A stretch of 64,000 bases of DNA, from NCBI GenBank assembly GCA_963693365.1, contig CAVNZM010000002.1:5596259-5660258 (forward strand), read 5' to 3'. The position numbers were made by a program, and so were the translations under genes. The notes beneath the pieces are model-generated. The model did no database searches, was not told the origin of the DNA, and saw only the letters and a list, made by a program, of their open reading frames with translations. The DNA is from Amoebidium appalachense (lineage: Eukaryota > Protista > Ichthyosporea). This document shows, in pieces, positions 47,001 to 50,000 of the stretch. Every line of letters starts with the position of its first letter. Positions within the stretch are counted from its first letter, which is position 1.

Positions 47001-50000
47001 ACAATCTTCTCACATATATGAGAGAATGATCGTATTGGTACGATTTGTCTAATATCTGACGATTCTGCAGCATCCATAAGACCCCCCTCCCCCTCCCCCC
47101 TCCCCTCCCCCCCCCCCCCCCCCCCCCCCCCCCCCCTCTCTCTCTCTCTCTCTCTCCTCTCTCTCTCTCTCCCTCTCCTCTCTCTCTCTCTCTCTCTCTC
47201 TCTCTCTCTCTCTCTCTCTCTCTCTCTCTCTCTCTCTCTCTCTCTCTCTCTCTCTCTCTCTCTCTCTCTCTCTTTCTTTTTCCTCCTTTTTTTTTTTTTT
47301 TTTTTTTTTTTTTTTGGCGCCTGTTGTTTTGCTTGTCATTTGTTGTTCTGGTTGATTACCTGTAATCTTCGCTTATTTATGTGTGTGTGTGTGTGTGTGT
47401 GTGTGTGTATGTTGTGCGGGGTTGCACATACCGGTGTCTACTTTTCTTCTTACTGTTTTTCTCTCCACACACTTCATCTGTCCACTTCTGCATACCCCCT
47501 TTCATAGCTATAGACACACTTCACACATTGCGTTACGCGCACGCATGCACACACCGCTCTGTTGGCGACAGCTCCCTTGGAACCCATGCGGCATGTTACC
47601 CGCCGGCGTAACATAACTCGGACTATCGGTTTGGCTTTTTTCAAGCCCAAAGCAATGGGTGATACCATATTTCCGGCTGACATCCGGGGGCATAGCTTTC
47701 CGTTCGAAGACGATAAAGTTCCGCCCTAGTAAGCGTGTTACTACCCTGCGGCGTGGGTCAAATCTCATATTTTCCCCTCTGATTACGAATTCTGTGGCCT
47801 TCGGGACTTAATTCTTTTCAGCTGGTGTAGTATGTTAGCCAGGGAAGTATCGACTTAGGTATCGACGGGGGAGCTTCCTAGAAGCCCCGTCTCCTGAGTT
47901 CCTATCTATATTTTTCTTGCTTCTGCTTACTGCTGCAACTTTAACCCCCGGCCTTTCCCACTGCCCTTGCCTGCATAAGCAACCCTGCTCGTCTCTGATC
48001 AAGACGGGTGACCTACTCATGTTCAAGTGAAACAGTATCTGAGTTGGGTTTCGTTAACGAGGGGAATAGGTCGAAACTCGGGTACTGTGGATGACGTGGG
48101 CCCCCCCTGAGGATGGGCTCTGCTTATTATGCATACTCTTTATGTATGGCTTGCATTCTGCATCGTGTTATCCGTTTGTTCTTGTGTACTTCGTACTTTT
48201 TGACGCATTCAAAACCCCCCCCCCCCCACACACACACAGCCATCTCCTCCCTCCCACCCCCCTCTTCTTTCCTCCAACCTCCTCGCGCCTCAACACACAC
48301 ACACACACACACACACACACGCGCGCGCGCGCGCGCACACGCACACGCACACGCACATGCACACAGTCACGTACATGGAACTATCTATCACGCACACATT
48401 ATTACCTATGCCCACATATACACCCTCATCATGGCGGAAGAGGATTCCTAAACACAGCCTTACGGCTGCAGGGTGAAAGCACTGGGACACATGCACATGC
48501 ACAGGTGAAAACACACGTACACACACACACACACACAAAACCATTTAAATGCGCACTCACACACCTGCCTGTTTTCTGCCCACGCAAATCAAGAGCACCT
48601 TGTGATCCCTAGAGACATGCACCAACTCACCGACATGCATACACACACGCACGTGCCGAGTTATAGCAAAACACACACACAAAAATTTTCTCCCCCCTCC
48701 CCCCCCCCCTCTCTCTCCCCCCCCCCCCCCTCTCCCTTCTTAACTCCCCCCCTCCCCCCTAAAAAAAAAAAAGGAAAAAAAAAAATAGTACACACATGCT
48801 CACGTGCACATTCACACGCACATACATCCAAGCACCCATCCACGGACTCCCCCCCCCCCCCCCCCCCCCCCCGCGCCCCTCCCCCTCCCCTCCCCCTCCT
48901 CCTTCGTCCCCCCTCCCTCCCTCCCTCCACACCCCTCTCCCAACCCTAAACCCCTTCCCCCCCACACACACAGGCTCAACTTGAGGACCCCTACCAAGAT
49001 GAGTTTATGGACTATGTCAGGACACAGCGAATAGGCGATGAGTCAGCCACCGTGGCCCTCACCAAGAGCCTGAAGGCACTGTATGCTGATGTGGCCGGGG
49101 AGACGATAGAGCAGGGTCTGGAGAGGAGAGAGGCAATGTACGTGTTTGAACAGACCCTCCCCCCCCCCCCCCCCCCCCCCCCCCCCCCCCCCCCCCCCCC
49201 CCCCCCCCCCCCCCCCCCCCCAAACACACACACACACACAGCGCACATTCCTCCCTCCCTGCCACCCCAACACACTCAAACACAAGCACACACATGCAGG
49301 CGCAATAAAACTTTATGTTGGTAACTGTGCATGTTCTCTTGGCACATCCACACTAGGTTATTGGTTGTGAATTTGTTCCCTTCTTACTGGTTTTTACAAA
49401 CCTTCCGCGCAACCCCCTTAACATTACCTCATTTCCTCACTTAATCCTCTTCAGCCTCTCCCTCTTCCCCTGCCTTTTTCCCCTGTTACCCCCCCCCCCC
49501 TCCCCCCCCCCCCCCCCCCCCCTCCCACCCCCCCCCCCCCCCTTGCCACCCCATCCACCCACCCTGCGCCACTTATCCACATCCCCCCCGCCCCCCCTCC
49601 CTCAACCCCCCCCCCCCCCCCCCCCCGCCCCGCACACCTGAACTCTCTCGATTTAGCTACTCATTCTTTTCAATACAATCCCAATCACTCTTGCCCCCCT
49701 CCCCCCCCCCCCCCACACACACACACACACATACGCCATCCTTTCCCTCTCAGCCCTGAGTGCTCTTGGGTGAAGGCTGATTCTAATCCGGGGATAATTG
49801 GCCACAAGCTCTGTTACAAACTTTCCATACTGACGGTGCAAGTATCAAGTGAACTACCCATTTATCCCCCCCCCCCCCCCCCCCCCCCCTCCCCCCCCCC
49901 CCCCCCCCCTCCCACTATGCTTGATCCTCCCCCCCCCCCCCCCCCCCCTTCCTCCCTCCCCCCTTCTCCAACATATTCACCCCACTTTCTACTCATTCAC

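Follow-up and report, generated by a model that had tools for sequence, protein, structure and literature searches.

The element and its pLTRs

The window, by which we mean the whole stretch of 64,000 nt of Amoebidium appalachense DNA that was analysed, contains a PLE in which a pair of pLTRs flanks one open frame (42884-46090). The shared part of the pLTR is 309 nt long and its two copies (42301-42609 and 47907-48215) are 100% identical. The main features of the element are as follows.

42301..42609, + strand, upstream pLTR, with a complete second copy of the fold described below (G10.1 at 42404, G12 at 42467, C3 at 42501; predicted cut after 42439)
42947..46090, + strand, PLE ORF, 1047 aa from the first ATG, with N-terminal GIY-YIG, CxC, DKA and RT
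47907..48215, + strand, downstream pLTR, 309 nt, the 3' end of which joins poly-C

Judged by its sequence the element is a member of the Naiad/Chlamys class with an N-terminal endonuclease, and is of Chlamys type rather than a Naiad. It shares with the elements of Craig et al. 2021, as set out in the available part of that paper (PMC8557442), the N-terminal GIY-YIG, CxC, DKA, RT, pLTRs, 5' truncation and (C)n insertion. The GIY-YIG match (PF01541, E 4e-4) is below the curated cut-off. The zinc-finger cysteines of the Naiad endonuclease are absent, as in Chlamys (PMC8557442). The assignment to the Chlamys type follows from a FastTree RT tree of 70 sequences, in which the window PLE falls outside the clade with all 22 zinc-finger sequences (support 0.994); the 70 sequences include no named Chlamys. 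The Chlamys characters of the element are an endonuclease without CCHH and a (C)n insertion target. The element called L019 below was left out of the tree because of its broken frame and a piece of less than 330 aa. The closest relatives of the window PLE have at most about 37% identity among the matches listed.

Some other features of the locus may be recorded here. The whole element lies in sense orientation within an inferred intron (about 42077-48973) of an SPX-domain gene, so that a ribozyme active in its pLTRs would make two cuts in the host pre-mRNA. The 3' region of the element includes 1.4 kb of homopolymer and microsatellite tracts (46091-47540) that resemble host intron sequence, and a complex, non-repetitive 3' UTR piece (47544-47906) 5' of the shared pLTR, both this piece and the pLTR being spanned by single contigs in sequencing runs X5 and X16. 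Over about 35 nt the first codons of the ORF (42944-42979) agree almost letter for letter with Acropora Naiad consensus sequences in their 5' region, and mussel Naiad ORFs open with a similar peptide, despite the distance between the RTs; no such match was found among 27 loci searched. The likeness suggests a conserved RNA element or N-terminal motif common to Chlamys-type and Naiad elements. Elsewhere in the window there is an exon for an N6/N4 DNA methylase (4011-4280, - strand; PF01555, E 8e-8), in this case in a eukaryote genome. An asparagine synthetase exon of the host has an identical match and, among named sequences, is closest to Sphaeroforma arctica (88% over 84 aa; a Penicillium protein reaches 87%). 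By this one short exon the host is likely to be an ichthyosporean.

A hammerhead core in scrambled order

A preliminary description of this DNA had proposed that the pLTR RNA is hammerhead-like, non-canonical and pseudoknotted, and invisible to standard searches. This was upheld, and an Rfam search of 41000-50000 at E up to 10 gave no ribozyme in 14 matches. The strings on which the description was built were all found where it had placed them (H1 at 47987-94/48002-09 with loop CTGATCA, H2 at 48033-45/48075-87, AGGGG at 48060-64, and AACCC at 47981-85 with GGGTT at 48046-50). The fold that we prefer has the following parts.

47975..47986, + strand, helix a, 5' strand: 47975-81 pair with 48121-27 and 47983-85 with 48115-17, and U47986 opposite U48114 is a mismatch
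47987..48009, + strand, helix b (the H1 of the preliminary description), 8 bp with a G-U closing pair; the last base, U48009, adjoins G10.1
48010..48015, + strand, stem II, 5' strand: G10.1 is 48010 and the partner is 48067-72 (pseudoknot)
48016..48022, + strand, helix P5, 5' strand, 7 bp with 48094-48100
48033..48045, + strand, stem III, 5' strand, 12 bp with 48076-87: U16.1 is 48044 and H17 is U48045; pair probability 0.99
48046..48064, + strand, region of the stem I 5' strand: GGG 48046-48 pairs with 48104-06, followed by a small hairpin (48050-61) and GGG 48062-64
48067..48087, + strand, stem II 3' strand (48067-72), G12-A13-A14-A15.1 (48073-76) and stem III 3' strand to 48087
48094..48106, + strand, P5 3' strand (48094-100) and stem I 3' strand (48101-06)
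48107..48113, + strand, core box C3-U4-G5-A6-G7-G8-A9 (CUGAGGA), exact consensus
48114..48127, + strand, helix a, 3' strand

On inspection of the sequence all conserved hammerhead core bases are present and in register. There is a CUGAnGA box compatible with a C3-G8 pair (CUGAGGA, 48107-13), a GAAA (48073-76) with A15.1-U16.1 and a UH cut site (U48044, U48045) on the 12-bp stem III, and directly before the GAAA a 6-bp stem II that opens with an R10.1-Y11.1 pair, G48010-C48072. The putative stem I, which would join the bases after the cut site to those just ahead of C3, has only 3 bp (48046-48/48104-06), and may be extended by 3 bp if GGG 48062-64 pairs with 48101-03. The motif departs from the types of Eckert et al. 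2023, in which 0-2 nt may separate the box from the strand of stem II: here the 5' strand of that stem comes to its end 92 nt before the box. In the fold that we prefer, helices a and b are placed between A9 and G10.1, and the order of strands is a, hairpin b, II 5', P5, III 5' with GUU, I, II 3', GAAA, III 3', P5', I', CUGAGGA, a'.

Much of the preliminary description is retained in this fold. Its stem III (H2), with GUU opposite GAAAC, and its stem II, GACCTA 48010-15/TAGGTC 48067-72 directly before GAAAC 48073-77, are unchanged, and the register of stem III and the core agrees with the cut that it predicted after 48045 (42439 in the upstream pLTR). Three of its elements are not supported. 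AACCC/GGGUU was taken as stem I, and in related elements the upstream strand pairs with the bases that follow the box and not with those that follow the cut site. The CUGAUCA loop of H1 was taken as a displaced box, and the equivalent loops are unrelated in every relative, the real box being downstream, after the stem I partner. H3 excludes P5 (48016-22/48094-100), for which there is a double change in the sister family discussed below. Of the suggested candidate variant or new self-cleaving ribozyme, the first applies: the pLTR RNA, which is predicted to cut itself, is a hammerhead variant and not a new ribozyme class. Two other arrangements of the box were tried and rejected, as an SGC reading with stem II formed from the bases after CUGAGGA fails at the first pair, and CUGAUCA as core box fails at G8.

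We have good confidence in the five-way fold itself. The fuller statement, that the pLTR has all hammerhead core bases in scrambled order, likely in a pseudoknotted five-way junction, with a predicted cut after U48045/U42439, is in our judgement probable, and active cleavage by the pLTR RNA is likewise predicted from the sequence with rather better than even expectation. The weak points of the fold in the window are the 3-bp stem I, U as H17 and the U-U first pair of helix a; in the Naiad examples discussed below, by contrast, stem I is of 5-7 bp and helix a starts with a base pair. The pair probability of helix a is 0.75 for its outer and 0.18 for its inner part, and its position at the junction is set by likeness to the Naiad and L019 folds.

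Covariation in a sister family

Logan contigs of 4 public runs (at most 3 samples, some of which may be the source of this DNA) were compared with 47540-48215. They include a sister family, at a depth in runs X5 and X16 about that of the window family, with a sequence that we read by eye from loose contig ends. A comparison of contigs with the fragment at 19416 contributed only two further letters of this sequence. It keeps 47965-48009 (with 2 differences) and 48090-48137, and between them has 86 other nt in place of the 80 nt of the window family. GAAAC is unchanged despite the replaced middle.

The preliminary description looked to covariation across pLTR families for support, and this is found for stem II and P5, each with a double change. 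Stem III has one consistent single change (U-G to U-A), and the H3 of the preliminary description is incompatible with P5. Stem II in the sister family is GACCC/GGGUC, with U-A changed to C-G by a double change at 48014/48068 and the sixth pair lost, and there is seemingly one extra base before G10.1. P5 is CCCAAGU/ACUUGGG, with a double change from U-G to A-U at 48020/48096 and a change from U-G to C-G at 48017, so that 7 of 7 pairs are kept. T48014C and A48068G are also present at near-equal depth in run X20 (1419 and 1434; unphased). In the sister family 24 nt, the cut site and the 5' strand of stem I among them, could not be read, and for this reason stem I is not supported by covariation; the T at 48104 in this family leads us to predict A or G at 48048. 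At the core-box positions 48107-13 there is no variant among those listed in the 4 runs.

Contig ends at 48047 in run X18 were considered as a sign of cleavage, and this was rejected, as they are explained by a variant at 48017 (31-mer branching). The window also has a 5'-truncated tail of the sister family at 19885-20000, with the common 3' end CGCATTCAAA before poly-C.

The same wiring in other PLEs

The same wiring was recognised by eye in six Naiad consensus sequences (Amil, Aacu, Anas, Plae, Obim and Ovul) in the available part of File S5 of Craig et al. 2021. The survey took in some 300 nt at each of 24 Naiad 3' ends, with motif matches in addition, from a set of 54 entries, and its counts are not frequencies. 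In these six the order is a, hairpin b, II 5', P5, III and cut site, I, II 3', GAAA, III', P5', I', CUGAUGA, a', to which the helices of the window correspond one-to-one. Helices a, b and stem II abut one another, a beginning directly after A9. The sequences that share this wiring are unrelated between lineages. P5 is clear in the Acropora and octopus Naiads and was not resolved in Plae. There are imperfections: Bfor looks degenerate, Aacu contains mismatches, and the two octopus sequences have only 3 proximal pairs in a and one mismatch in b. The GUU site of the window occurs also in Naiad_Hpol.

Six nematode Naiad consensus sequences from the same partial set have plain type-CSG hammerheads, and Naiad_Asuum has a type-CSG hammerhead with a single U after A9. 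The plain and single-U forms indicate that helices a and b are an insertion at a variable point. The base before G10.1 is a U not only in the window and the sister family but also in L019, Amil, Plae, Obim/Ovul and Asuum.

We also looked at 25 PLE-related loci from contigs filed with prokaryote genomes, many of them without 3' ends. These loci (L003-L027) are eukaryotic PLEs on contigs filed under bacterial genomes or MAGs, probably through host contamination. A descriptor of the five-way fold, run over 27 loci, matched only both pLTRs of L019 and the two full window copies, with no match in 24 of the 25 related loci (many truncated). L019 is a zinc-finger Naiad, and in both its pLTRs the box is followed by hairpin a, hairpin b and stem II. 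The full order is stem I', CUGAUGA, hairpin a, hairpin b, stem II, with 7 bp in stem I, 6 in II, 4 in III, 5 in a and 6 in b. As far as its sequence can tell us, the L019 motif is a circular permutation of the window fold, the same junction opened elsewhere. L019 and the nematode Naiads have the C-S-G order; the order of the window, S-G and then the box, resembles SGC. An earlier descriptor, which allowed at most 2 nt after A9, missed L019, and in two truncated copies it took flanking sequence for a 4-bp stem II partner, which is spurious.

Rfam gave no ribozyme in 9 related loci, and none in L019 at E up to 0.5. The fold was not found in 24 Chlamys 3' ends (about 400 nt each, from a set of 49 entries), of which 2 have a canonical hammerhead, as reported. 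Viral contigs gave no PLE relative and no DNA match. A metagenome pattern scan gave 2 matches that look bacterial and are without the stems, and we take them as chance.

Some of the related loci have other structures. L009 (about 6600-6720), and also L020, L022 and L015, have 3' of the RT a fold that by eye is twister-like and not a hammerhead (UAA, hairpin loop UUCUCAAGG, complementary GAGA); Rfam gave no twister match in L009 or L015 at E up to 0.5. There are SECIS matches 3' of the RT in L010 (1060-1123; 39.3 bits, above gathering) and L011 (1271-1334; 29.2 bits, below it), in line with selenoprotein Naiads.

Truncated and decayed copies

The window also has several partial copies of the pLTR.

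296..483, + strand, 5'-truncated copy, starting at the equivalent of 48026
15477..15630, - strand, 5'-truncated copy, starting at the equivalent of 48060
19416..19514, + strand, decayed fragment of a related family, 78% identity, with a degenerate core box
34043..34155, - strand, 5'-truncated copy, starting at the equivalent of 48098
41444..41629, + strand, 5'-truncated copy, starting at the equivalent of 48028; without a, b, the stem II 5' strand and the P5 5' strand

The stem II 5' strand is missing from all four young truncated copies. With the box transcribed last and the stem II 5' strand far upstream of it, 5'-truncated copies would be inert in cis. Those at 296 and 41444 extend 5' beyond the predicted cut, which implies a template that was either uncut or religated.

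Proposed mechanism

A9 and G10.1 are neighbours in all described hammerheads and are separated in the window fold. We infer that they lie on different strands bridged by helices a and b, which would abut each other and stem II. Stacked in this way, a and b would hold A9 against G12 on top of G10.1-C11.1, much as the continuous backbone does elsewhere. The chemistry would be the standard one, in which G12 acts as base and the 2'-OH of G8 as acid, as described for PK and extended hammerheads. Cuts in both pLTRs would give a unit RNA of 5,606 nt (42440-48045) with the entire ORF. Ligated circular templates have been proposed for PLE RNAs and would explain partial tandems (Cervera and De la Pena, available part of PMC4209133), and the unit RNA could on that proposal be ligated and then used as template.

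Alternative readings

The alternative that survives best is that the fold is real and inherited, and is weak or silent here, serving as a structural or protein-binding element while the PLE moves uncut. It would account for the 3-bp stem I, the GUU site and the U-U at the junction, and for the two truncated copies that span the predicted cut. It also has precedents: hammerhead mutants of the Poseidon PLE left insertion in vitro unaffected, and the available part of that study reports no RNA-seq ends at the cut site (PMC11167929), while the minimal hammerheads of metazoan PLEs are said in the accessible text of PMC4209133 to cleave poorly. However two families with widely different surrounding sequences both have the box and GAAAC intact, and no core-position variant is among those listed in the 4 runs. 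We regard this alternative as unlikely, though not negligible.

The second alternative is the fold of the preliminary description, with AACCC/GGGUU as stem I, C-S-G order, 24 nt with hairpin H1 in place of the box, and H3 plus a kissing pair as cap. Such a fold would imply a catalytic core of a new type, but it is more likely to be an inactive structure adopted while the box has yet to be transcribed. Its stem I has 5 Watson-Crick pairs but taken alone is weak, since 3.1% of random 35-nt stretches offer 48046-50 a partner of that kind, and 74% do so when G-U pairs are counted. Of 20,000 shuffled versions of the pLTR that preserve dinucleotides, 1,382 had a UH/GAAA stem III of at least 5 bp, 209 had this together with a stem II of at least 6 bp, and 43 (0.2%) had both with the stem I of the preliminary description. 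Its energy is comparable to that of the split-core fold, about -68 against -66 kcal/mol (nested scaffold plus pseudoknot stacking, with loop penalties ignored). Pseudoknot-free folding cannot rank the two, and helix b and P5 occur together in none of 2,113 structures within 2 kcal/mol of the MFE. Against it, the exact CUGAGGA, placed as in related elements, is omitted, H3 is incompatible with the covarying P5, in Amil, Plae and L019 the upstream strand does not pair with the bases that follow the cut site, and the loops equivalent to that of H1 are not conserved. We consider it improbable as the functional structure.

A third possibility is that cleavage takes place only in a dimer or tandem, by way of self-complementary stretches, as for minimal PLE hammerheads. 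There are three palindromes (UGAUCA in the b loop, a 10-nt palindrome at 48051-60, and GGGCCC), and dimeric cleavage has been proposed for metazoan PLE hammerheads (PMC4209133, in the part available). But with a 12-bp stem III the usual reason for dimers is absent, and in none of Amil, Plae and L019 is the loop of b a palindrome, which makes this reading very doubtful.

Chance resemblance in a structured 3' UTR, for which one could cite the lack of a folding-energy signal (pseudoknot-free fold of 47960-48130, z -0.16, a stability that is not unusual) and of an Rfam match, is hardly credible, and was already disfavoured, given that no shuffle of the 20,000 had stems II and III, a downstream CUGAnGA and stem I, that the sister family has double changes, and that unrelated elements have the same wiring. 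The five-way descriptor matched 1 of 20,000 shuffles, a figure to be read with the descriptor having been composed after the data were seen and its minimum lengths for stem I and a being those of the window itself.

Relation to known hammerheads

With regard to earlier classifications, our preferred split-core fold is closest to the type-CSG and type-SGC hammerheads of Eckert et al. 2023 (PMC10085705), with which it shares the core bases, the three stems, a pseudoknotted non-circular order and a short linker between stem I and stem II. In the available part of that paper, hammerheads are treated as six permutations of three blocks (C, G and S). The C block, composed of CUGAnGA with a strand of stem I before it and one of stem II after it, is assumed to be uninterrupted, with insertions of at most 1-2 nt; the examples come from metatranscriptomes, metagenomes and one bacterium, and not from PLEs. 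In the window, unlike the Eckert types, block C is split, some 100 nt separating the box from the 5' strand of stem II upstream. We found the term "type-CSG" in the open-access literature only in Eckert et al. 2023.

The PK hammerhead of Zhan et al. 2024 is similar in that stem II is the pseudoknot helix and an extra helix, IV, is present (PMC11300833, as far as available). However there A9 runs straight into G10.1-C11.1 and helix IV joins helix I, leaving the core strand uninterrupted, whereas that of the window is interrupted. Perreault 2011 describes, in the available part (PMC3088659), short core insertions (A6a, U13a and two near C3) and no inserted helices. The canonical PLE hammerheads of Cervera and De la Pena 2014 are likewise present in both pLTRs, with unit-length cutting proposed, but in the accessible text (PMC4209133) they are of type I, often minimal and dimeric, while the window RNA, with a stem III of 12 bp, has additional helices and a non-circular strand order.

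Craig et al. 2021 reported no canonical hammerhead in Naiads or in most Chlamys, with some marked HHR_core or half_core, and their Chlamys hosts are green algae, spike mosses and slime moulds (PMC8557442, available portion). The window element differs from those described there in having a complete but rewired hammerhead and an ichthyosporean carrier. No description of the split-core fold or of a permuted hammerhead in Naiad or Chlamys was found in the open-access literature (PMC, bioRxiv). What is likely to be new is a carrier of the fold that is not a Naiad and probably not an animal, the covariation in the sister family, and the circularly permuted form in L019.

The broadest claim to be made is that the hammerhead split between A9 and G10.1, and reconnected by two stacked helices, is an active natural ribozyme in at least 2 circular permutations, and the missing ribozyme of PLEs with N-terminal endonucleases, occurring both in animal Naiads and in an element of Chlamys type from a unicellular animal relative, and having predated their split or moved as a module. 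To this we would give even chances. If true it breaks a rule of Eckert et al. 2023, by which the box has to be contiguous with the stems beside it, widens the topologies that ribozyme searches must allow, and overturns the reported absence of hammerheads from Naiad and Chlamys elements. The role of a pLTR ribozyme could then be tested in this young family, with its two identical pLTRs and one open ORF. The break between A9 and G10.1, occupied by nothing, by one base or by two helices, is a natural series on the tolerance of the core.
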